Source: Naegleria gruberi
Lineage: Eukaryota
Length of the DNA: 64,000 nt
Direction: 5' to 3' (one strand)
Assembly: GCA_000004985.1 (NCBI GenBank)
Contig: GG738860.1
Position 1 is the first letter of the stretch. Each line of letters starts with the position of its first letter. Shown in pieces: positions 5,037 to 57,710 of the stretch. The notes beneath the pieces are model-generated. The model saw only the letters and a program-made list of their open reading frames with translations, searched no databases and had not been told where the DNA came from. A program made the translations under genes and the position numbers.

Positions 5037-5987
5037 TTATTCCTTAAGAGCAGCCTTAGACTTATCAATACCAATAATATACTTCTTGAAACCTGGAACA
5101 GCGAGACCAAGACAAACAAATGAAGCAATTGAGAATGCAACAAAATATTTGAGAAGTTCTGAAAATGTAGCACTTCTCTTATATTCTTCTTCACTATATC
5201 TAGATCTAATATTCTTCCACCTATCTTCAAGATTGTATCCAGGATCATAAATACTTTTCATGGCTTCACCTCCACCAAGAATTTCTCCACGAGCTGTATG
5301 ATTAGAAACTGTAGCTTGTTCATTATTAATTTGAGAGACTACACTTTTGATATCCTCCACTCCCTTCAACTTGGCTTCCTTCAAAACTTTGAGGGTTCTT
5401 TGTTGTCCGGATTGTTTCTTCAACTTTTGTTCAACGTTGAAAATAGCTTGAATTGATGATTTCAAATTTTCATCAACTCCTTCCTTTTCCATCATATTCT
5501 TTAACAAACTTCTAGCCTTTTCTTGTTCTTTTTGAATTTCTTCCATGTATTCATTTTCTTCTGGAGACAAATCAGAAGCAGCCAATCCTTTTGATCTTTC
5601 TTCAAGAGCCAATCTTCCTTCTCCTTCAGCAGGAATGTGGAAAATAGCCTTTTTAATACGTTGATTTTCTCTAATATCTTGTAATTTTTCTGCTGTTAAA
5701 GAATTAAAATCAAATCCTTCTTCCGGAATAGAAACAGGTGGAACTATAACACTAAATTGTCCACTATTTAATATATCTTGAACTCTGTTTGATGATCTAA
5801 TATCAATTTCTTGACTTGGTTGTTTTTCATTTTGTTGCAAAGTACTAGTCGAGAATGAACGGGAAGATGATGCACAAGCACAACAAGAACAATTATGATG
5901 ATGATTACCAACAACAATAACAGAGGTGCGAGCAAGTGTTTGCTGTCTTGTAGTAGAAGGAACAGCGCGAACAACTTTCTTCAACAT
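5037..5987 (-). CDS. Hypothetical coiled-coil protein with a mitochondrial-presequence-like N-terminus and a C-terminal transmembrane anchor.
   Basis: ORF of 316 aa, ATG at 5987. N-terminus MLKKVVRAVPSTTRQQTLARTS (basic, hydroxylated, no acidic residues). C-terminal hydrophobic stretch FVAFSIASFVCLGLAVPGF. No family recognised. Confidence 0.45.
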   Translation of the reverse strand: MLKKVVRAVPSTTRQQTLARTSVIVVGNHHHNCSCCACASSSRSFSTSTLQQNEKQPSQEIDIRSSNRVQDILNSGQFSVIVPPVSIPEEGFDFNSLTAEKLQDIRENQRIKKAIFHIPAEGEGRLALEERSKGLAASDLSPEENEYMEEIQKEQEKARSLLKNMMEKEGVDENLKSSIQAIFNVEQKLKKQSGQQRTLKVLKEAKLKGVEDIKSVVSQINNEQATVSNHTARGEILGGGEAMKSIYDPGYNLEDRWKNIRSRYSEEEYKRSATFSELLKYFVAFSIASFVCLGLAVPGFKKYIIGIDKSKAALKE

Positions 5988-6312
5988 ATTTTTTAAAATT
6001 ATTATTTGGGTTTAAAATTGGAAATATTATTTGTTAATTAAATTCAATAATAATTAACTTGAGCAATAAACAAGACAATTAATTCATAAACCACAAGAAG
6101 ATAAAATTCAGAGTTGGGTTGAGACTCAAGTAGTATCAATGAACGATTTTGTTAAGAAAAATATGAAAGTTGGCTGACAAAAGAGGTCGGAAATTGGCAG
6201 AGGGGATATGTCAAATTGATTGCATTACACCTTTGTTAATTGGGAGTTGGGCCGACATTGCCAAGTATAACAAGAGGAAAAACTTGTAGATGCATGCTTA
6301 AAAGAGGGGAGT

Positions 6313-9300
6313 TTATTGTTGCTGATTCCACAACAAGGCCCTCTCGAATCCTTGAGCTAATTTGGCTAAATTGGTGGCTAATAATTCATTTTCCTCAGAG
6401 GAAGAGAAGTGGTTGAGCGATTCGTTAAATTCTGCAGCATCCTTAATATTTTGGAATTTCCATTTCTTTTTAGAGAATCCCTTGCTGAGGTCCTTTGGAA
6501 GTTTGATCTTTCTTCTAATGACCTTGTCGTGAGAATTTGAACCAAGAACCATATTTGAGAAGGAATCAAAGAGAGGTTTACATGATGAGATGTAACCTGT
6601 TTCTAATAAGATTGACTCTATAAATTGTTGACCTGTTGCATCTGTGTTTTGATTTACATTCCAATAGGCAATTGTCATGGAAAGTTTTTGAACAAAGTTT
6701 GAAATTGCACTCTTTCCTTCCAATGTGAGAATATCAAATACAGCAAAAAGCTTATTCATGGATGGTTTTGAAACAATCTTGGCTATTCCCCTAGCAGAGT
6801 CCCAAGAGATGGTCGTCTTTTCATTCAATTGTATTGAAAGATCAAAGCAGTGGAAGGTTTCTTCAAAATCAGACTTGTTTGTTGAAGGTTTGGAACCTTT
6901 CTTTACATTTTCTTGGTAAAGGCTCAATTGTACAGTTAGTTTGGTAAGATTACTTTCCTTTAAGAAATAGGATGTCAAAATTGAAGAACTATCGCCTAGA
7001 GTCTTTACGATTGTATCAATTCCCTTTGGATCGACCTCATTCTCAAATCTCTCAAGTTTACTCTTGAGATTTGATAAATTGTTCAATGAATCAGGATTCT
7101 TAAATATTGGTTCCTCTGTTGCTTGTAAAATTTTGGTGGAGGTGATTGGTTCAAACTTTGCAATCATTACGTGTTTTGGAGAAGTTGTGATCTCAGTCAT
7201 AATGTCCTTAATATCATCTGATGTATCTGCAGATGCCATATTACTGTCAACAGTAAATAATTTAGTTATCATTTCCCTGAAAGATGACTTTCTATGTATC
7301 TTTCCTGCTGTGAGTTTGGTAGAATCTTTTGGATCTAAGCTATTTGGAGAGGAAGAAATAAGGATCGATGGAGAATTGGTTGGTGATGAAACAATGGTCT
7401 CTTCAACTTCTTGTTGTTCGTCAATATTCAGCTTGGAGAGAGCTCTGGATGCCTTTTCAAGGTTCACGCTAATTTCTCTTTCAGTTCTGGCAACCAATAA
7501 TTCCTTAGCGATGAGGGTGAGGTTTTGTAATTCATCAAGCCAATATTCGTACAGAACGGGTACAACCTTTTCAATAAGTTCTAATTGCCCAGAGTTGCGG
7601 GCATTCTCCATTGGAAGTCTATTGTGAGCACTATCTCTTTCTGTTACAAGATCACAAATTGAGTTGTGTTCGAAATATTCCATAACTCCATTAAAATCAC
7701 CATTAGTAAAGCAATCATTCAAATCTAAAAATTCATCATCGAATGGTGATTGGATTTGATTTACAGCACCATTTCCATTCAGTAAGTCCAACATACTTGT
7801 ATTATCTTGTTGTACTTGTGTTGTTACTGCAGCTTCATATACCATCCTATCCTCAGCATAAGTGAAAATCATTTCGGTCTCAGGTTCCTGAACTTGGACA
7901 TAGGCATCTCTTGAACATACTGTAACAACATAGCTGTTTTGATTTGCATTTGGTTTTGGAGGTACAGTAAAACCAATTGAGTGCTTTGATGTGATACCAC
8001 CACTATACGAAAGCTTAGTTCCTCCAAATGTTACAATAAATTTAGCGTCTTGATGTAATTCCTTTGATGAAATAACAGCAACAGGTGTTCCTTCATGGCC
8101 TTCAGTTGGATAAATTTTGTCAAATTTGTAGGAAACAATTTGAATAGATCCAGAGCTAGTATTATGAAGTTGATTGTAAACCTGCAACAACAATTGACTT
8201 TGATGAATGAAATCCTCAAGTAGTGCACTTTTTTGTGGATCCTTCTCATACATTTGATTCAGTATTCTTGCAGAAAGAATTTCTTTCAAATCAGTTACTA
8301 ACTTTGGTGAGATTTGAGGAGTTGCCAATTGTTGTTGTTGTTGATTTTGGGGAGGTGAAGTAAGATGGGTACTATGTGATTCATTGCTACCTTCCTCATC
8401 AGAATGATCTTCTGGAGCCTTTCTCTTTGGTTTACAAATATCTTGTCTCTTTGCACTCTGGAAAGGTTTTGTTTCGATCCAATACAAAAGTGATGGATCT
8501 GATTTTGGTTGAGTTGGGTACTTGTATTTGAGCATTCTCTTAGTGAACTTATTGCTTGGAAGAGCTAAAAACTTTGTGCAGAGAACAACACCCAATCTAA
8601 ATCTATCCTTTTGTGGTTTCTTCTCACCATTATCCAATCTTCCTAAATTTTTATCCAATTGATAGGTATATACATTTGGTTTAATCTTGATTCTGTCATG
8701 TTTCATTAAACAGTAAGAAATGTCCTTATCATCACCATCTTCTCCTCTAATATAAAAATGTGCATAGAGCTCTTTTTTCATATTCTTTACGAAATGATCC
8801 AAAAAAGTTGGAGAAAATTTAACTGTAACTGGTGCAGCTATTTTCTTTGATCCATGTTTGATTAATTCATCAGATCTATTGGCAAGTGAGCCAATAATAT
8901 ACTTGGTATTGTCATCAAAATCTTCTTTCATTGTGAGAGACATGATTGGAGCTTCAAATGAATTAGTATTGACTTGATCAATTAGAACTTTGTTGGTATT
9001 CTTTTGATCCAAAATAAGTTGGAATTTGATTGTAAACTTTGAATATACAGAAGTATCATGTAAATTCAAAACGAAACCCTTTGGTTTAAAGACAGCCTGA
9101 GTACATCCACCAAATTCTTGAGTATAGGATTGAGTAATTAAATCGCTCAATTTAATATTGGTATTGAGTGGAAATTCGGAGAAGGTGAAGATATCATTGC
9201 AACTTGGATCGCTACGTTTAGTTGCAGCAATATGACAACTTAAAAAACATGTGGATTCTTCATCTTTACATTTATCCATTAAACGATCACAATTTACAAT

Positions 9301-22810: not shown

Positions 22811-23234
22811 ATGACTGAAGTTGATTTATCAAACCAACCAATTCCTGAAGTTGATATTGCTATGGAAGAACTTGCCCAACACAAGGGTGAAAATGATTTA
22901 CCAATCTGGATCGGAGTCAATGGTAAGTTTCATCATCACAAAAACTAACCACAAATTTCATTATCTAATTTTAATTTAATATTTTGTGATTTTAGGTTTG
23001 GTCTTCCAAGTTAACGAAGAAAAGAGACACATGTATCAACCAGGAACTGGATATAGTATTTTTGCTGGAACTGATGCTACTAGAGCTCTTGCCAAGTCAA
23101 GTGTCAATGCTGCTGATCTTGAACCATATGGAAGTTTGGAAGGTTTGACTGAGAAGGAAATGAATACACTCAATCAGTGGATTAGTTTTTACAAGAAGAG
23201 ATATGTCATTGTTGGTAAAATAAAGAAGGATTAA
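22811..23234 (+). CDS. Cytochrome b5-like heme/steroid-binding domain protein (MAPR / PGRMC-like). Two exons: 22811..22922 and 22996..23234.
   Basis: Exon 1 MTEVDLSNQPIPEVDIAMEELAQHKGENDLPIWIGVN+G with donor GTAAGT at 22923. A 73-nt intron ends TTTTAG at 22995. Exon 2 LVFQVNEEKRHMYQPGTGYSIFAGTDATRALAKSS...KKRYVIVGKIKKD*. The GxDATRA motif and surrounding pattern match the MAPR family (YGVFAGRDASRGLA). 351 nt, 116 aa. Confidence 0.65.
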
Positions 23235-25084
23235 AATCTGATGGAATCTTTAATAACCAGTTGACCTTTTTCTAAATATTCTTTAGTATCATCAATGTAG
23301 AAAGTAAGTATTTTTGGTAGGTTGTTAATCTCAATACGTGAATTTTCGTCTAGTTTTAATTTCGAAAGAATGAATTCTCTAAGCTGTGGACAATCAATCA
23401 CACAATTAAGGTGGACACTGGACTGTGAGATGAAAACAAATTTCAAAGCAGGATGTGGTTTGGTTATGAAAATTTTGGAACCTGCTTTCCCATCTGAAAG
23501 AGAAAAGTAATTTAACTGTGGTAGTATGGAGAGGTCGAAATGAACCTGACAAAGTGCTAAACTTAAGGAAGTCAACTTTTCGAATACTGGCACACTATTC
23601 AATTCCATAGAGAAGTAGAATGGTTGGGATGATCTAAAACTCAAATTAGATAATGTTTCAATATTCATATCCGATTTCCTAATCTCATGACTAAAGGCTG
23701 TTGTAAACCTGTTCATCTTAGGTTCGCCGTTCACAAAGCATTCATCATATGATATTGATTTGATATCATATTTTGTACAATCAATGATCATCTCCATTAT
23801 TGGTCTCCAACATTTAATTCTAATGTCTTTACAGTTGATTTTCATGATATAGTCCCATGCTGCTCTTTTCAATTTTCCATCATTCAAAGTAAGAACGACT
23901 TGTTTGATGGTATGAATATGCTCTAAACAAGCAGCATTGGTCTCAACTAACTCAATCTCGTCCACACTGTCTATGTGTATTTTAACTGAGGAAGGTTTTG
24001 GAGGTGGTACTAATTCTTTAACATGTTCTACCCTTACTATTCCATTCGGTACTCTTGCCATTCGGAATGATTCCAATCTGTCGATATCCACATGCACTTC
24101 TTCAATATTATCAAAACCAAGCTCCTCAATAGAATTCCACATATTCCTTTCAATCTTAACACATTGTAAACAACAAAATCTTGCTTTTACAACTCCAGCT
24201 ACAGGAAGGCATTCCAAGAGGGTTGTATCTATATTTTCTATATTCATTTGTTCAATATTGAGCTTGTTATTCCTATAGGTCAATGATTTAACAGATTTCA
24301 AGCTTAAGCTTTTCAGGTTTGGCAAAATTAAATCTGTCATTTCTAAATTTACGCATTCCAATTCCAAACCAGCCAAAACGTCAGATCTAAAAGTATTATT
24401 AATTGATATGGAATCACAATTCCAGGAAATAGAATAAATATGAGTAAATAGTTCAATAGGGATCATATTAGTTGTAGACAAAAATGAAAAGAATTTGAAA
24501 ATTTCCGAATTTCCTCTTATTGATTCATAATTGACGCAGTTAGTGAGCTCAAAGGTTTTAAAGTTCTTATCTTTAAACATTATCAAATCTGTTAGAGAAG
24601 AAAGAGAAAGATTCAAATCAGTAATATTCTCATTATCTAAAACTAGAGAAGCAATGGGTGCCAAATTATCTGAATATATTGAAAGACTGTTTAGCTTGTC
24701 AAATTTTAGACTTCTATTAGAAAGCTCATCGTTTTTAAAATCGTAATCCATCCAAACTAACTTTTCAATATTTTTGAAATCGTTCAAAATTCTTGTTAGC
24801 CAAGACTTTTCTTGACCATTTTCCACATAACTTGTTGGAACTTTTACCATCGTCAATTTCTTAACAACCTGACTTCCACCCATCACTACATTCAACAATT
24901 CCATCATTTCATCATAAGTTTGTGAAAATATTTCCTCATCAAGAATAGTACCAACATTTCGATGGTAAATAGAATCTGATAAATAATCCCATCTCAGATC
25001 AACAAAACATGTTTTCCACAATTCGTAATTTTCCTCTCTTATCACTCTTCTAAATGTTGAACAGGTGTGTAGGAGTGGTAACAT
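23231..25084 (-). CDS. Leucine-rich-repeat protein (FBXL-like), intronless, 617 aa.
   Basis: ATG at 25084. Repeated LxxLxLxxN/C-type LRR units throughout (KLNSLSIYSDNLAPIASLVLDNENITDLNLSLSSLTDL, LPNLKSLSLKSVKSLTYRNNKLNIEQ, and others). Confidence 0.5.
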   Translation of the reverse strand: MLPLLHTCSTFRRVIREENYELWKTCFVDLRWDYLSDSIYHRNVGTILDEEIFSQTYDEMMELLNVVMGGSQVVKKLTMVKVPTSYVENGQEKSWLTRILNDFKNIEKLVWMDYDFKNDELSNRSLKFDKLNSLSIYSDNLAPIASLVLDNENITDLNLSLSSLTDLIMFKDKNFKTFELTNCVNYESIRGNSEIFKFFSFLSTTNMIPIELFTHIYSISWNCDSISINNTFRSDVLAGLELECVNLEMTDLILPNLKSLSLKSVKSLTYRNNKLNIEQMNIENIDTTLLECLPVAGVVKARFCCLQCVKIERNMWNSIEELGFDNIEEVHVDIDRLESFRMARVPNGIVRVEHVKELVPPPKPSSVKIHIDSVDEIELVETNAACLEHIHTIKQVVLTLNDGKLKRAAWDYIMKINCKDIRIKCWRPIMEMIIDCTKYDIKSISYDECFVNGEPKMNRFTTAFSHEIRKSDMNIETLSNLSFRSSQPFYFSMELNSVPVFEKLTSLSLALCQVHFDLSILPQLNYFSLSDGKAGSKIFITKPHPALKFVFISQSSVHLNCVIDCPQLREFILSKLKLDENSRIEINNLPKILTFYIDDTKEYLEKGQLVIKDSIRF

Positions 25085-25376
25085 GTATTTTGCAATTTGT
25101 TCCCAAAGATTTGTGTCATCGAATAGTTTACCTGGAGGGTAAGTCCAAAGTCAATGGTGGTCAATGGGTATGTTGGAGGTTTCGACTTAGTTTGGATCTG
25201 CCAACATCAGACGGTTCCTTCAACAACCAAAGAGAATTCGAACAATCAATGGCTGAGCGGGCCACCAATGGCTGGGCGGGCCACCAACAACATTTCGCCG
25301 CACCAACAACATTTGGCCGCCTAAATTGCTACAGGTGTAGAGGTGGTAGCAGGGTCATTTGTTTAAATTCAAAAAA

Positions 25377-27482
25377 ATGGAAGACACTGATATTCAACGC
25401 TTTTCTGATGAATACTCTCGCAACAAACTTAAACTTCTTCGGGATAAAATTGTTCAGAAATTATTATTAAAGCAAGAATGGAATATGGTATTCGAAGAAC
25501 TTCCAGTGTTGACCAAAAAAAAGAAAACCAGAAAGCAAGCTAAAGATATTCGCACTATTGATCACATCAAAGAGGTACTCCTAAAAAGATTAGGGTATGT
25601 GCCTGTGTATATGTTTTTGAATTTGATGGCAAGTATTTGTGGAACTCCAGAGGGCCCCTATAGAAAATCTGAACTGTATTTAATTATTCTATACATGCTA
25701 GTTAAAAACAAGTCAGCTGATGAGTTGGATTCTTTAGAAATCATTCCATCAACATCCATAAGAAGAGTTGCTGATCAGATTTGGGATGATAATCGAGATG
25801 AACTTAATGTCAAAGTTGACCAATTATTGGCCAAAATGTTTTCCTCACACATTCTCAGAAGTGTAACAGCCAAATTGGAGAATGATAAGGATTTTTTGTT
25901 TGCAACCATGTTCCTTGATGGTCATGACACAAGAATTGAATATAATAACCTGGCCACCTATTCTAGATTTGATTATTGGTCTTTTAAATTCAAAAATTCT
26001 GGTTTAAGAACCCAGGTATTAATGGATGTTAATGAATTTACCTTAGCTGTATCCAAATCAGAAGCATGTAAGGCCAATACAGACATGAAAATGTTTACAA
26101 TTATGGACATACATAATAATGTCGATATGACAAATCATGATGTTGTTTTTTTGGATGGTGGTTACTTTTTAGGAATGAACGATTATGTTGAGAGTTTACA
26201 AGAAAAAGGAGTAGAGTTTGGACTTGACAATTTCCGTACACCTATTAGAAAATCAAGAAATATCCCTTTTGACGACTCAGAGGCTGCTTATAATGAGAAA
26301 TTTGGTGCCTTTCGAGGAACCATAGAGACTCTGTTTTCATTTTTGGCTGAGAAATTTGAATATTTTTCAAACAAAAATCATGCCTCTTGTGTTGCTGAAA
26401 TGGAGCAAAAGTGGAATTTACAGTTCAAAGTGTGTTTGTTATTGGTTAATGTTTTAAAGTTTTGTAAGAAGTTTAATGTTGAGACACAAACCAAGCACAG
26501 ATTGTGGATAAACAAAGAATTTGATTTTGAGTTCAATACTGACAAAAAGTTAATTCCAACACCGGTATTGCAAGAGCAATTACAATATTCCAGAGACTCT
26601 CTTAAAAAACAACAAGATTATTTGGATAGAGTGTTAGAGATGACAGAAGAAGAATTAGAAGAAGAACTTGAGCGTACTTTTAGTCTTTCTGATTTTCCAC
26701 AATTTAACCCCAGCCAAGATATTACAATATCCAAACCAAAATCAAATCCTCAATCAGAAATTCCACCTAGATCTCAAGTAAGATCAGAAACATCACAAAG
26801 ATCTCAATCAAGATTAGAAACACCACCAAGATCTCAATCAAATCCTCAATCAGAAATTCCATCAAGTCCTCAATCAAGAACAGAAATTCCACCAACATCT
26901 CAATCAAGATCAGAAACACCATCAACATCTCGATCAAGCCCTCAATCAGAAACACCACCAAGATCTCAATCAAGATCAGAAACATCACAAAGATCTCAAT
27001 CAAGATTAGAAATTCCACCAACATCTCAATCAAACCCTCAATCAGAAATTCCACCAAAATCTCAATCAAGATCAAAAACACCACCAAAATCTCAATCAAA
27101 ATCAAAAACATCACCAAGATCTCAATCAAGTCCTCAATCAAGATCTGAAACACCACCAAAATCTCAATCAAATCCTCAATCAGAAATTCCACCAAAATCT
27201 CAATCAAAATCAAAAACACCACCAAGATCTCAATCAAGATCAGAAACATCACCAATATCTCAATCAAGTCCTCAATCAGAAACACCACCAAGATCTCAAT
27301 CAAGATTAGAAATTCCACTAAGTCCTCAATCAAAATCCAAACGAAATCATCCAACAAAAAGGAAAGGATATTACTCACCGAATGATGAAGACGCAAAAAG
27401 AGTCACACTTTCAAAAGAATACCAAAAGGGTGTATCAGGTAACAAAAGAAGTAGAAAACCGCCACCCACTTTCGATGCTTAA
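25377..27482 (+). CDS. DDE_Tnp_4 (Harbinger/PIF/HARBI1-like) transposase-domain protein with a C-terminal array of about 15 copies of a 13-aa Ser/Pro/Gln-rich repeat.
   Basis: ATG at 25377; ORF-track start 25359 is TTG. Catalytic-triad context: ATMFLDGHDTRIEY (D1, cf. GVVDCIHVAI / AIDGTHI), VVFLDGGYFLG (D2, cf. LLGDSSF / LGDSGY), GAFRGTIETLFSFLAEKFEYF (E, cf. SVIEKTFRTLCSRFRCL). D1-D2 spacing is about 80 aa and D2-E about 54 aa. The tail consists of degenerate repeats (PRSQSRSETSQRSQSRLETP, PPKSQSKSKTPP, and so on). Confidence 0.6.
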   Translation: MEDTDIQRFSDEYSRNKLKLLRDKIVQKLLLKQEWNMVFEELPVLTKKKKTRKQAKDIRTIDHIKEVLLKRLGYVPVYMFLNLMASICGTPEGPYRKSELYLIILYMLVKNKSADELDSLEIIPSTSIRRVADQIWDDNRDELNVKVDQLLAKMFSSHILRSVTAKLENDKDFLFATMFLDGHDTRIEYNNLATYSRFDYWSFKFKNSGLRTQVLMDVNEFTLAVSKSEACKANTDMKMFTIMDIHNNVDMTNHDVVFLDGGYFLGMNDYVESLQEKGVEFGLDNFRTPIRKSRNIPFDDSEAAYNEKFGAFRGTIETLFSFLAEKFEYFSNKNHASCVAEMEQKWNLQFKVCLLLVNVLKFCKKFNVETQTKHRLWINKEFDFEFNTDKKLIPTPVLQEQLQYSRDSLKKQQDYLDRVLEMTEEELEEELERTFSLSDFPQFNPSQDITISKPKSNPQSEIPPRSQVRSETSQRSQSRLETPPRSQSNPQSEIPSSPQSRTEIPPTSQSRSETPSTSRSSPQSETPPRSQSRSETSQRSQSRLEIPPTSQSNPQSEIPPKSQSRSKTPPKSQSKSKTSPRSQSSPQSRSETPPKSQSNPQSEIPPKSQSKSKTPPRSQSRSETSPISQSSPQSETPPRSQSRLEIPLSPQSKSKRNHPTKRKGYYSPNDEDAKRVTLSKEYQKGVSGNKRSRKPPPTFDA
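26740..27340. repeat. Coding minisatellite, period about 39 nt with about 15 degenerate copies, encoding (S/R)QS(R/K/N)(S/P)(E/Q/K)(T/S)E(T/I)PP(R/K/T).
   Basis: Visible periodicity of TCTCAATCAAGATCAGAAACACCACCAAGA-like units. The reverse strand yields the artifactual ORF 26767..27396 (EILVVFLILIEIL...). Confidence 0.8.
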
Positions 27483-27940
27483 TGGTTTGGTTTGACTAGT
27501 ATTGGCTTTGTTTTGTTGGAGCGGCCAATTAATGTTGGCCCGGGCAAATAGGTTTTGGCGTGGCGGGAAACCATTGGCGTAGCGGGAAACTGTTGGTGTG
27601 GTTGGCTTTTATTTGCCCCACCAGCAACAATTTACAACTACAACAACCAAAAACAGTACCAGAAACCACCTACCACCACCAACACACACCATTTTGGAGT
27701 TACCCTCCTGACGGAAGAAAATAGGAAAAGATGTATGTGAGAATTTCACGAGGGAGGTGATCTAGTTGTTGAGACATTTTTTTTTAATCTATTATTTGGA
27801 AGATTCAACTTGGCATTGTAAAGCTCAACCATTACAAAAAAGTGAGAAGTTGAAATTCGAACAAAATCTGTAAAACACCAAAAAATAGAAATCATCACTT
27901 AGTTGTTATTAAATCCTTAATAAAAACTCATCAAAAAAAA

Positions 27941-29293
27941 ATGAAAAGAAAGAGTGAGAGTGATCACAAGACGGAAAAACTAGAAAAAATTCAGAAACTT
28001 TCCAATGACCACACCTCTCCGAATTTTACTACTAATTTTGAGTACTCGATAGCTTTGGCTGATGATCGTGATGATCAGGAATTTGGAATAACTGTTTCGG
28101 AAAGGGAGGAACAGATTGAAAGTAATTTAATTGTATCGTGCTCAACCTCAACGACTAATAATTATAGTAAAAGCAAAAAAGATGTTAGGAAGGAAAATAG
28201 AGTTTCGGATTTGATGATAATTGGAAAGGAAAATGTAAATATCAGCAATAGAAATATTTTGGAATATTCGGAAAATTTCAATGATTTAAATAATACAAGA
28301 AATTGTGTTTTTGCTAATGATGAATTACATGAAATATTTTCATTCTTACCAGTCGAGTATTTGGTAGACGTGTCACATGTTTGTGGACAATGGAGAGATT
28401 TGATTCATAACGTAAAATTATTTCACCACTGGAAAGATCACATAATTTCCAATGGTATATCTCAGTTCCACAAGAAAATCAGAAAGAAATATTCCAAGAT
28501 TATGCCTGTAAATTATATTGCAGATATTAGATTACAGTTATGTAATCATGCTATTTTTCTACTATTGATTTTAACCACATATGGATGTTATATAGCTAAT
28601 TGGGATTTTACTTATTGCTATATGTGGACTCTTGGAATCATTTTATGGATCCATGTTTCCTTCCATGTGTTTGAGTTAGAGTTTCGATCTCATTTGCAAC
28701 AAGTTAAACATGACATAGATAATCAATTATTATCACTTGATTTTTCAATTGAAATGAATGTCTTACCATGCTTTTTGAAAATAGCCTTGATACAAATCAT
28801 CAGTACACTCTCTATAGTGTCGACAGCACTCATTCTGATGTATTTAATTTGGAAAATAGAACAATTTAATTTCATTGAATTGTTGAATATTCAAGTCAGA
28901 ATTCCACTCCTTCTAATATTTTACGGTTTAACTAGATATCCCTTTTTACTTCTTACCAAAATTCTCCAAAATGGATTAGTTTCAGTTGCCAATTTTATAA
29001 CCACCTCCTTAGTGTTATACTTTGAGTGGATTATTATTCAGAGTCACCTTAATTTTCCAGAAAGATTCCTAATATTTGTGATTGTTACATTAAGATACTA
29101 TCTTTTCTATGATAGATGCGACATTTTGTACCGTTTGGCAAATCATAGAAGTATCCAAATTCATACCATGATGAGATTATCTCTTGTGTCATTCCCTCCT
29201 CTGAGCTCACTACCGATTTTAATTCACTCAAAATATTTTGGCTCTGAAGTTAGTGAATCCTATTTCTCATTCCTAACTGATCATATAATTTGA
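27941..29293 (+). CDS. F-box-like N-terminal domain protein with multiple predicted transmembrane helices.
   Basis: ATG at 27941. F-box-like motif LHEIFSFLPVEYLVDVSHVCGQWRDLI. The C-terminal half has several hydrophobic helices (AIFLLLILTTYGCYIANW, WTLGIILWIHVSFHVF, ALIQIISTLSIVSTALILMYLIW, LLLIFYGLTRYPFLLL, LVSVANFITTSLVLYFEWIII). Confidence 0.45.
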   Translation: MKRKSESDHKTEKLEKIQKLSNDHTSPNFTTNFEYSIALADDRDDQEFGITVSEREEQIESNLIVSCSTSTTNNYSKSKKDVRKENRVSDLMIIGKENVNISNRNILEYSENFNDLNNTRNCVFANDELHEIFSFLPVEYLVDVSHVCGQWRDLIHNVKLFHHWKDHIISNGISQFHKKIRKKYSKIMPVNYIADIRLQLCNHAIFLLLILTTYGCYIANWDFTYCYMWTLGIILWIHVSFHVFELEFRSHLQQVKHDIDNQLLSLDFSIEMNVLPCFLKIALIQIISTLSIVSTALILMYLIWKIEQFNFIELLNIQVRIPLLLIFYGLTRYPFLLLTKILQNGLVSVANFITTSLVLYFEWIIIQSHLNFPERFLIFVIVTLRYYLFYDRCDILYRLANHRSIQIHTMMRLSLVSFPPLSSLPILIHSKYFGSEVSESYFSFLTDHII

Positions 29294-57638: not shown

Positions 57639-57710
57639 TCCCGTGTAGTCCAATGGCTAGGATACCTGGCTTTCACCCAGGAGGTCCGGGTTCAATTCCC
57701 GGCATGGGAG
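57639..57710 (+). tRNA. tRNA-Glu (anticodon TTC), 72 nt, no intron.
   Basis: Acceptor TCCCGTG/CATGGGA (one G-T pair). D-arm GTCC-AATGGCTA-GGAT. Anticodon arm CCTGG-CTTTCAC-CCAGG. T-arm CCGGG-TTCAATT-CCCGG. Discriminator G. Closely resembles eukaryotic cytosolic tRNA-Glu. Confidence 0.9.

Follow-up and report, generated by a model that had tools for sequence, protein, structure and literature searches.

A probable single-gene, Harbinger-related transposon with delimited ends in Naegleria gruberi

Is a long, unannotated gene of Naegleria gruberi that carries the motifs of a Harbinger transposase a mobile element, the remains of one, or a host gene? The locus in question lies in a 64,000-nt stretch of N. 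gruberi nuclear DNA (assembly GCA_000004985.1, contig GG738860.1; ~34% G+C; hereafter the window), where an open reading frame (ORF) at 25377-27482 on the plus strand encodes 701 amino acids (aa) and is 100% identical to an NCBI/UniProt entry from a 537-kb scaffold named "predicted protein [Naegleria gruberi]". An earlier note, made from the letters of the window, had suggested that the locus could be a non-autonomous or decaying element, or a domesticated transposase with an acquired tail. None of these fates turned out to be the best reading, since the copy is complete, its sister elements in Naegleria fowleri are mobile, and no gene of the window is shared with the loci of the relatives. 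The locus is probably a structurally complete copy of a small, single-gene cut-and-paste transposon related to Harbinger (PIF/Harbinger, PHIS superfamily). It is called structurally complete because its terminal inverted repeats (TIRs) match at 14 of 15 positions, its target-site duplication is intact, its subterminal arrays mirror each other, and its ORF is uninterrupted and holds all catalytic residues.

Ends and subterminal arrays

The features that delimit the element are listed here from left to right.

25132-25134, no strand: left target-site duplication CTG, read from the sequence
25135-27707, plus strand: whole transposon, 2573 bp, bounded by the TIR pair and the CTG duplication
25135-25149, plus strand: left TIR, GAGGGTAAGTCCAAA, 15 bp
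25247-25322, plus strand: left subterminal array of four contiguous 19-bp units (two of CAATGGCTGRGCGGGCCAC, then two of CAACAACATTTSGCCGC..), called by Tandem Repeats Finder (TRF)
27518-27596, minus strand: right subterminal array, four units of 19-20 bp that mirror the order of the left array
27693-27707, minus strand: right TIR, reverse complement GAGGGTAACTCCAAA, a 14/15 match to the left TIR
27708-27710, no strand: right target-site duplication CTG, read from the sequence

The TIRs and the CTG duplication were absent from the earlier note and are added here; a TWA target-site duplication had been predicted, and CTG was found instead. The longest complementary stretch, GGAGGGTAAGTCCAAA, pairs 25134-25149 with 27693-27708 over 16 nt with 15 matches (94%), and the outermost base of this pair was assigned to the flank, which yields a 15-bp TIR and the CTG duplication. 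Searching the 64 kb with the TIR at up to 3 mismatches returned only these two matches.

Inside the termini, the left array begins 112 bp from the left end and the right array ends 111 bp from the right end, and each consists of two units of the CAATGG..GCGGG type and two of the CAACA..TTGGCCGC type, which are putative transposase-binding sites. Each 19-bp repeat is confined to this locus within the window, and none of 100 shuffles gave a match. Aligning the left flank with the reverse complement of the right flank showed that the two are colinear, with a global score of 22 that was reached by none of 1000 dinucleotide shuffles (-8 +/- 7). The flanks are also the two most GC-rich 60-bp windows of the 64 kb, at 0.65 and 0.60 (mean 0.34, standard deviation 0.065). 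The four flank strings quoted in the earlier note are all in the sequence, and its interpretation of them as subterminal repeats of a DNA transposon held up: they are unique to the locus within the window, colinear and mirrored, and their layout is shared with the N. fowleri elements described below.

The transposase and its C-terminal tail

The coding part of the element was divided as follows.

25377-27482, plus strand: single transposase gene, 701 aa plus stop
25377-25901, plus strand: N-terminal all-helical domain, aa 1-175, from an AlphaFold2 (AF2) model, mostly at high predicted local distance difference test (pLDDT) scores
25902-26471, plus strand: DDE catalytic core, aa 176-365
25917-25919, plus strand: codon of D181
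26154-26156, plus strand: codon of D260
26325-26327, plus strand: codon of E317
26472-26738, plus strand: conserved post-catalytic segment, aa 366-454 (H..W...FDF motif, long helix with Q412)
26739-27320, plus strand: Ser/Pro/Gln/Arg-rich tandem-repeat tail, aa 455-648, 18 units
27321-27479, plus strand: basic C-terminal end, aa 649-701 (KSKRNHPTKRKG ... NKRSRKPPP)

The three catalytic contexts of DDE_Tnp_4 that had been pointed out earlier are present: FLDGHD (aa 179-184), FLDGGY (aa 258-263) and RGTIETLFSFLAEKF (aa 313-327, with E317 inside IETLF), with D181, D260 and E317 spaced 79 and 57 aa apart. This triad is conserved throughout the alignments of relatives, being invariant in the close-family alignments A3 and A4; alignment A7, with 32 members, keeps D181 and D260 without exception and E317 in at least 90%, and among the 42 members of A5 each of the three residues reaches at least 90%.

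The Pfam profile DDE_Tnp_4 matched the window protein across profile positions 17-158 of 158, with 21.4 bits at full length (E = 2e-4) and 22.6 bits for aa 1-454 (E = 9e-5), just under the curated cut-off of 24.8 bits, so that membership rests on the relatives. The profile matched 6/6 close relatives (best E 8e-10) and 33/42 wider relatives (best E 1.6e-12), and 10/10 metagenomic relatives scored above the cut-off at 30-41 bits. The relatives align with the window protein across positions 1-430 of the family profile. A homologue search with the tails kept in the alignment was swamped by low complexity (9 proteins) and was rerun with trimmed cores. An exhaustive profile search put the family at 511 representative proteins at E<=1e-3, of which 118 reach E<=1e-30; many align along the entire 430-position profile. 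Named members come from Naegleria fowleri, Willaertia magna, Mortierellomycotina (Linnemannia, Mortierella, Entomortierella) and Mucorales (Rhizomucor, Cunninghamella).

The AF2 model was built from 32 sequences and reached a pLDDT of 86.5, while a 6-sequence version (pLDDT 49) was discarded. In it, D181 belongs to strand 178-184, D260 comes directly behind strand 257-259 and ahead of helix 267-276, and E317 is part of helix 300-326. As modelled, this is the placement expected of an RNase H-like fold, where a strand holds the first D, the second D sits between strand and helix, and a helix holds the E. Triad, fold and the Pfam matches of the relatives together support a PIF/Harbinger-type transposase (PHIS superfamily, DDE_Tnp_4), as had been proposed; the assignment is sound, and the protein belongs to a divergent branch of the IS5/PIF-Harbinger kind.

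On either side of the core, the protein is conserved as well. The N-terminal region is shared across the family (profile positions 1-170) and matched no Pfam family in 7 members, even at E<=10. Because of this, the assignment of aa ~97-135 (SELYLIILYMLVKNKSADELDSLEIIPSTSIRRVADQIW) as helix-turn-helix-like and putatively DNA-binding follows a sequence pattern seen by eye. Behind the core, W377 is nearly invariant in A5 and A7, and Q412 in A5, and the model shows helices at 396-421 and 424-435.

The tail that follows had been described as about 15 copies of a 13-aa (39-nt) repeat. A repeat tail is indeed there, but it consists of 18 units. Nine of them measure 10 aa (SQSRSETPPR type) and five 12 aa (SQSNPQSEIPPK type; four from the computed listing and the fifth from a parse by hand), with another four of 9, 11 or 14 aa. 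In TRF the basic period is 30 nt, repeated ~19 times, and higher-order periods lie at 66, 96 and 138 nt. The tail is composed of S (29%), P (18%), Q (12%) and R (10%), and holds 15 [ST]P sites, 6 of which are [ST]Px[KR]. As all unit lengths are whole codons, the reading frame is held to the C-terminus. Pairwise differences between units fall on codon positions 1, 2 and 3 in numbers of 54, 83 and 8, and are nearly all amino-acid changing. The open frame of the tail was considered as a sign of selection and rejected, since the repeat unit is stop-free in all three sense frames and only the whole-codon unit lengths are informative. Thus composition and frame of the tail are maintained, while its sequence is not; the amino acids are conserved neither among units nor among species.

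An antisense ORF of 209 aa (LIEILVVFLILIE...) at 26767-27396 on the minus strand spans the repeat tail. By frame arithmetic, the sense codon position 3 that unit variation avoids is position 2 of the antisense frame; this avoidance is most likely a by-product of A-ending codons.

The basic end behind the tail is a putative nuclear localisation signal, and similar basic ends occur in the relatives P0003 and P0007 and in ORF2 of N. fowleri. P0003 (517 aa) and P0007 (569 aa) are intact single ORFs with a low-complexity region and a basic end after the H..W..FDF segment. The tail is consequently not an acquisition peculiar to this locus, as the earlier note had thought possible, given that close relatives with a complete C-terminus end in the same manner. 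At the equivalent position, 14/42 wider relatives carry a chromodomain (PF00385, best E 7e-15). Family members that end in one include P0162, P0164, P0168, P0174, P0176-P0178, P0183, L006 (aa 406-452) and L007 (aa 422-468). A PDB profile search showed the chromodomain as HP1 matches as well, and in L006 and L007 it scores above the cut-off; a Pfam search of the window protein found none. Judged by sequence, the post-catalytic region is an exchangeable module, of which N. gruberi carries the longest version and the most regular repeat among the relatives sampled.

Sister elements, partner genes and rival explanations

Within the 64 kb there was no second copy of the protein or of the ends, and one N. 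gruberi protein is annotated among all family matches. Evidence of movement was found in N. fowleri (GCA_008403515.1), which carries the homologous gene at at least five loci in unrelated gene neighbourhoods. Four of these copies are 99.4-99.7% identical at the DNA level, and the fifth is 93.7% identical to the reference copy. Identity sets in at one common base in all copies, where the shared terminus GAAGCTCGGTTCAG... lies, and stops at the inverted terminus in the three copies that retain a right end; the copies have common inverted termini GAAGCTCG... These three copies, which have both ends, are flanked by 3-bp duplications, namely CCA (L003), CAA (L002) and TAA (L025), so that a 3-bp duplication is found in 4/4 complete copies when that of N. 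gruberi is included. The complete elements L003 (2071 bp) and L025 (2318 bp) show the same layout as the N. gruberi element, and L003 holds the reading frames of the transposase only. Some 105 bp in from either end, the N. fowleri elements carry four 19-bp subterminal repeats that share a GTTTCAAAG core and follow one another at exactly 19 bp. The near-identity of the copies indicates that the sister element moved recently and, together with their number, their unrelated neighbourhoods and the 3-bp duplications, argues for a mobile rather than a domesticated family.

One N. fowleri copy, L002 (9751-12115), is rearranged: its left terminus is the variant usual at the right end, and at its right end the normal left end is repeated in inverted orientation over 484 bp, which take in the first 236 bp of the ORF; the CAA duplication is kept. 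In Willaertia magna (L024, JBEGDK010000023.1), a long T-rich tandem array with a 19-bp period lies upstream of the homologue and a shorter 19-bp-spaced array downstream of the conserved coding region (arrays at 5677-6014 and 7521-7691), the period being that of both Naegleria elements.

The N. fowleri copies in the alignment, including the ~6%-diverged L025, have a common 7-nt deletion relative to N. gruberi (near 11030-11095 in L001, L003 and L004, and near 6600-6666 in L025; window counterpart 26393-26530), and L004 has identical stop and restart positions around it. The coding region is split into ORF1 of 350 aa, with the entire DDE core, and ORF2 of ~200-260 aa, with the FDF segment, tail and basic end. 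The copies went on spreading after this split, and either ORF1 and ORF2 act separately or an unseen intact copy mobilises them. Programmed frameshifting was considered and rejected, because the break is a 7-nt deletion without a slippery heptamer and a different 7-bp duplication lies near it in L005. This metagenomic relative (ENA ERZ4903137 k141_41688), 66% identical to the window protein, carries at 1312-1325 the tandem duplication GTTGAAG GTTGAAG, which breaks the frame ~35 nt downstream of the N. fowleri deletion, so that this short linker has been hit twice, independently, by indels of 7 nt.

The sister elements bear directly on the possibility of a domesticated, HARBI1-like host gene, whose tail would have been gained to serve the host and whose flanks would be remnants. 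A single annotated copy in N. gruberi, the long intact ORF and the unusual C-terminal extension would all fit. Domesticated transposase genes normally lose their transposon ends, however, and here the TIRs, the target-site duplication and the symmetric subterminal arrays are all kept. None of the 36 larger ORFs of the window has a counterpart at any of the five N. fowleri loci or at that of Willaertia, and this lack of shared genes means that there is no orthologous position, which argues against domestication. As the homologues in N. fowleri are multi-copy mobile elements, the catalytic triad is fully retained and the tail sequence is not conserved among units or species, domestication is very unlikely.

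A host origin of the flanks alone was considered as well. The element lies between two divergent genes, and the left end of the element is 50 bp upstream of the ATG of the left neighbour.

23231-25084, minus strand: left neighbour gene, ATG at 25084
27941-29293: right neighbour gene, F-box

In such a divergent promoter region (starts at 25084 and 27941), the flank repeats might be regulatory arrays of the neighbours, such as promoter or factor-binding arrays, with a coincidental inverted arrangement. This is extremely improbable, because the motifs occur nowhere else in 64 kb that hold many other promoters, the arrays are mirrored and equidistant from a TIR pair, and the N. fowleri element has the same arrangement with different repeat sequences that travel with it to five loci. 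The left neighbour had been called a leucine-rich repeat gene; the gene is there, but it has no Pfam match at E<=1 and is leucine-rich and repetitive by eye only. A stretch at 25062-25084 (ACAGGTGTGTAGGAGTGGTAACA on the plus strand, covering the first codons of this minus-strand gene) resembles 25331-25351 (ACAGGTGTAGAGGTGGTAGCA) inside the left end of the transposon, with a looser inverted echo at 27665-27690. The likeness may be due to chance or may reflect a further subterminal motif.

The question of a partner gene was approached from the ORFs of the element and from those of its relatives. Apart from the antisense ORF in the repeat array, 25135-27707 contains no second ORF of at least 60 aa, and the earlier statement that a Myb/SANT-like second ORF is missing therefore stands. 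Distant metagenomic relatives have a linked second gene of one of two types. Type A encodes ~550 aa and was found at L008 1433-3097 (-), L009 1416-3068 (-), L011 1683-3326 (-) and L018 982-2637 (-), and further in L016, L014 and L007 40-1599 (+). Type-A proteins are 30-73% identical to each other and share motifs such as HDLDITTDC, KVYNKLVQMLES and RLEVTFYG. A reading of this ORF as Rep_trans-like was rejected, as Pfam and PDB profile searches gave no sequence match. In L008 and L009, the transposase and the type-A gene are enclosed by perfect inverted repeats of 127 bp and 100 bp, respectively, at the contig ends. Type B (L012 3143-4105, L013 2389-3639, L015 3478-5736, L017 3328-4824, L019 1055-2251 and L021 90-2030) encodes a Cys-rich repetitive protein without significant Pfam match, in which Cys and His abound at the N-terminus and modules repeated internally, along with acidic stretches, make up what comes after. 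Pfam searches found no Myb/SANT domain among these second genes, and tblastn found no match to either type in the window or the N. fowleri loci.

These observations frame a further alternative, in which the locus is an immobile or non-autonomous relic that depends on a second protein, Myb-like or other, from another locus, or whose master copy is gone. Its apparently single copy and the lack of a second ORF are in keeping with this, the two ends are only loosely matched outside the TIR, and in the distant relatives a second ORF is linked to the transposase within long TIRs; two ORFs are also the state of canonical PIF/Harbinger, Pangu and Nuwa elements (PMC4482050). A relic is nevertheless unlikely. 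The 701-codon ORF is uninterrupted with all catalytic residues, the TIRs match at 14/15 and the duplication is perfect, and the second-ORF types of the relatives are unmatched in the window and in the N. fowleri loci. The partnerless 2.07-kb sister in N. fowleri has 99.4-99.7% identical copies and has moved recently, and single-ORF PHIS elements of the Spy type are described as existing and active (PMC4122938; PMC11304231).

Several points weigh against a complete, self-sufficient transposon at this locus. Only one N. gruberi copy is visible, and the evidence for mobility comes from N. fowleri. Transposases of the canonical PIF/Harbinger group depend on a Myb-like partner. The element encodes no such protein, hence the lineage would either do without or use a host factor. 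A TIR-like pair at <=3 mismatches arises in 7/100 shuffles, the boundary was placed one base inside the longest complementary stretch, and, with a single copy, terminus and duplication rest on one TIR pair. On the side of the protein, the window protein's own DDE_Tnp_4 score is below the curated cut-off, the N-terminal domain belongs to no recognised DNA-binding family, and the amino-acid changing differences between units leave the tail sequence without visible purifying selection. Finally, all N. fowleri copies are ORF-split by the 7-nt deletion, thus intactness of the long ORF may not be a requirement for transposition.

As for the wider setting, the other genes of the window are ordinary eukaryotic ones, coding for a seven-transmembrane receptor, WD40, SPRY and F-box proteins, a ceramidase, an inositol-1-phosphate synthase and a fatty-acid desaturase, and tblastn of the 701-aa protein against phage records gave no match. 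A reading of the window as giant-virus DNA was rejected on the identity of this protein to the N. gruberi entry. A GC-rich stretch at 2592-2651 that begins GGGGCGGTTAGCTCAGCGGTAGAGCACC looks like a 5' tRNA half, perhaps from an intron-containing gene; it was not called by ARAGORN, whose sole call in the window was tRNA-Glu at 57639-57710.

Proposed mechanism and comparison with named groups

For a self-contained transposon, a simple course of transposition can be proposed. The 701-aa protein would enter the nucleus by means of its basic C-terminus and bind the four 19-bp subterminal repeats of each end through its helical N-terminal domain. With the ends paired, the DDE core (D181, D260, E317) would cut at the 15-bp inverted termini, and reinsertion by a 3-bp staggered cut would give rise to the 3-bp duplication (CTG here; TAA, CCA and CAA in N. 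fowleri). Observed among these elements are the catalytic residues, the fold (as a model), the TIRs, the mirrored arrays, the 3-bp duplications and the recent mobility of the sister element. The tail is probably an expanded form of a disordered, fast-evolving C-terminal module, placed where distant relatives carry a chromodomain. Its role is most likely in regulation or tethering, not in catalysis, and it may modulate import, stability or chromatin contact, perhaps via proline-directed phosphorylation.

A bolder proposal, which I put forward tentatively as it is rather unlikely to hold, is that Heterolobosea and Mucoromycota share a previously undescribed, self-sufficient PHIS lineage. Such a lineage would have no Myb-like partner, and behind its H..W..FDF segment it would carry an exchangeable C-terminal module, either a chromodomain, as in many members, or, in Naegleria, a phosphorylatable Ser/Pro-rich basic tail, that tethers or times transposition. 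If true, chromodomain- or tail-bearing cut-and-paste transposases would follow the logic of chromovirus integrases.

With the reading as a complete transposon, an unannotated "predicted protein" becomes a fully delimited element, and the suggestion of domestication is corrected. The element also points towards a PHIS lineage in which the Harbinger pairing of a transposase with a Myb partner does not hold; its Naegleria members are ~2-2.6 kb long and have one gene, 19-bp subterminal arrays and 3-bp duplications beyond TWA. The near-identical copies in N. fowleri argue for recent activity in a pathogen, and a small one-protein element with defined ends is a candidate genetic tool, also for this species. 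The swap between chromodomain and disordered tail after the catalytic domain, seen across the family, offers a testable handle on how cut-and-paste transposases choose their targets in chromatin.

PHIS elements make duplications of 0-3 bp, typically of 3 bp. The named groups were compared by their published descriptions, taken from Han et al. 2015 (PMC4482050), Han et al. 2014 (PMC4122938) and Kojima 2025 (PMC12730594). Canonical PIF/Harbinger elements have a TWA duplication, a transposase with a Myb/SANT ORF, and a length of ~4.1 kb (Han et al. 2015, PMC4482050). ISL2EU has an AT duplication and a THAP-domain transposase with a YqaJ ORF, and Spy has no duplication and a single ORF (Han et al. 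2014, PMC4122938). Pangu has an ANT duplication and two ORFs, NuwaI a CWG duplication, a transposase with a Myb/SANT ORF and TIRs starting with G (PMC4482050), and NuwaII a TNA duplication and likewise a transposase with a Myb/SANT ORF.

Set beside these groups, the Naegleria elements have a single ORF and a 3-bp duplication without a single motif (CTG, TAA, CCA, CAA). With PIF/Harbinger they share the D/D/E core of DDE_Tnp_4 type, short TIRs starting with G, a 3-bp duplication and a helical region before the core. They differ in having no Myb/SANT ORF, in their size (~2.1-2.6 kb versus ~4.1 kb), in duplications that are not limited to TWA (one of the three N. fowleri copies, with TAA, fits; CTG does not), and in the arrays of four 19-bp subterminal repeats per end, as well as in the long C-terminal extension in N. 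gruberi. The single ORF recalls Spy, but Spy makes no duplication and is limited to invertebrates, whereas the Naegleria element makes a 3-bp duplication, occurs in Heterolobosea and has relatives in Mucoromycota. NuwaI comes close in that CTG fits CWG and the TIRs start with G; unlike the Naegleria elements, it has a Myb/SANT ORF, is ~4.5 kb long and is found in animals only, and the N. fowleri copies have TAA, CCA and CAA. ISL2EU differs in its AT rather than 3-bp duplication, and a Pfam search gave no THAP or YqaJ match in the window protein and its wider relatives. HARBI1/ALP1 genes share the DDE_Tnp_4 domain and, with the N. gruberi locus, an apparently single copy, but those genes have lost their ends and hold conserved positions, while at the N. 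gruberi locus TIRs, duplication and subterminal repeats are all preserved and synteny is absent.

Chromoviruses are Ty3/gypsy retrotransposons whose integrase ends in a chromodomain. The likeness to them is one of analogy only, in a variable post-catalytic module that is a chromodomain in about a third of the relatives sampled; enzyme family and element class are different, the Naegleria protein has no chromodomain, and a targeting role for its tail is conjectural. Full-text literature searches, with Repbase outside their scope, found no description of Harbinger-like elements in Naegleria or of chromodomain-bearing PHIS transposases. The combination seen in Naegleria is shared with none of the groups compared; the element is placed in the PHIS superfamily, within no named clade, and its lineage is possibly undescribed.

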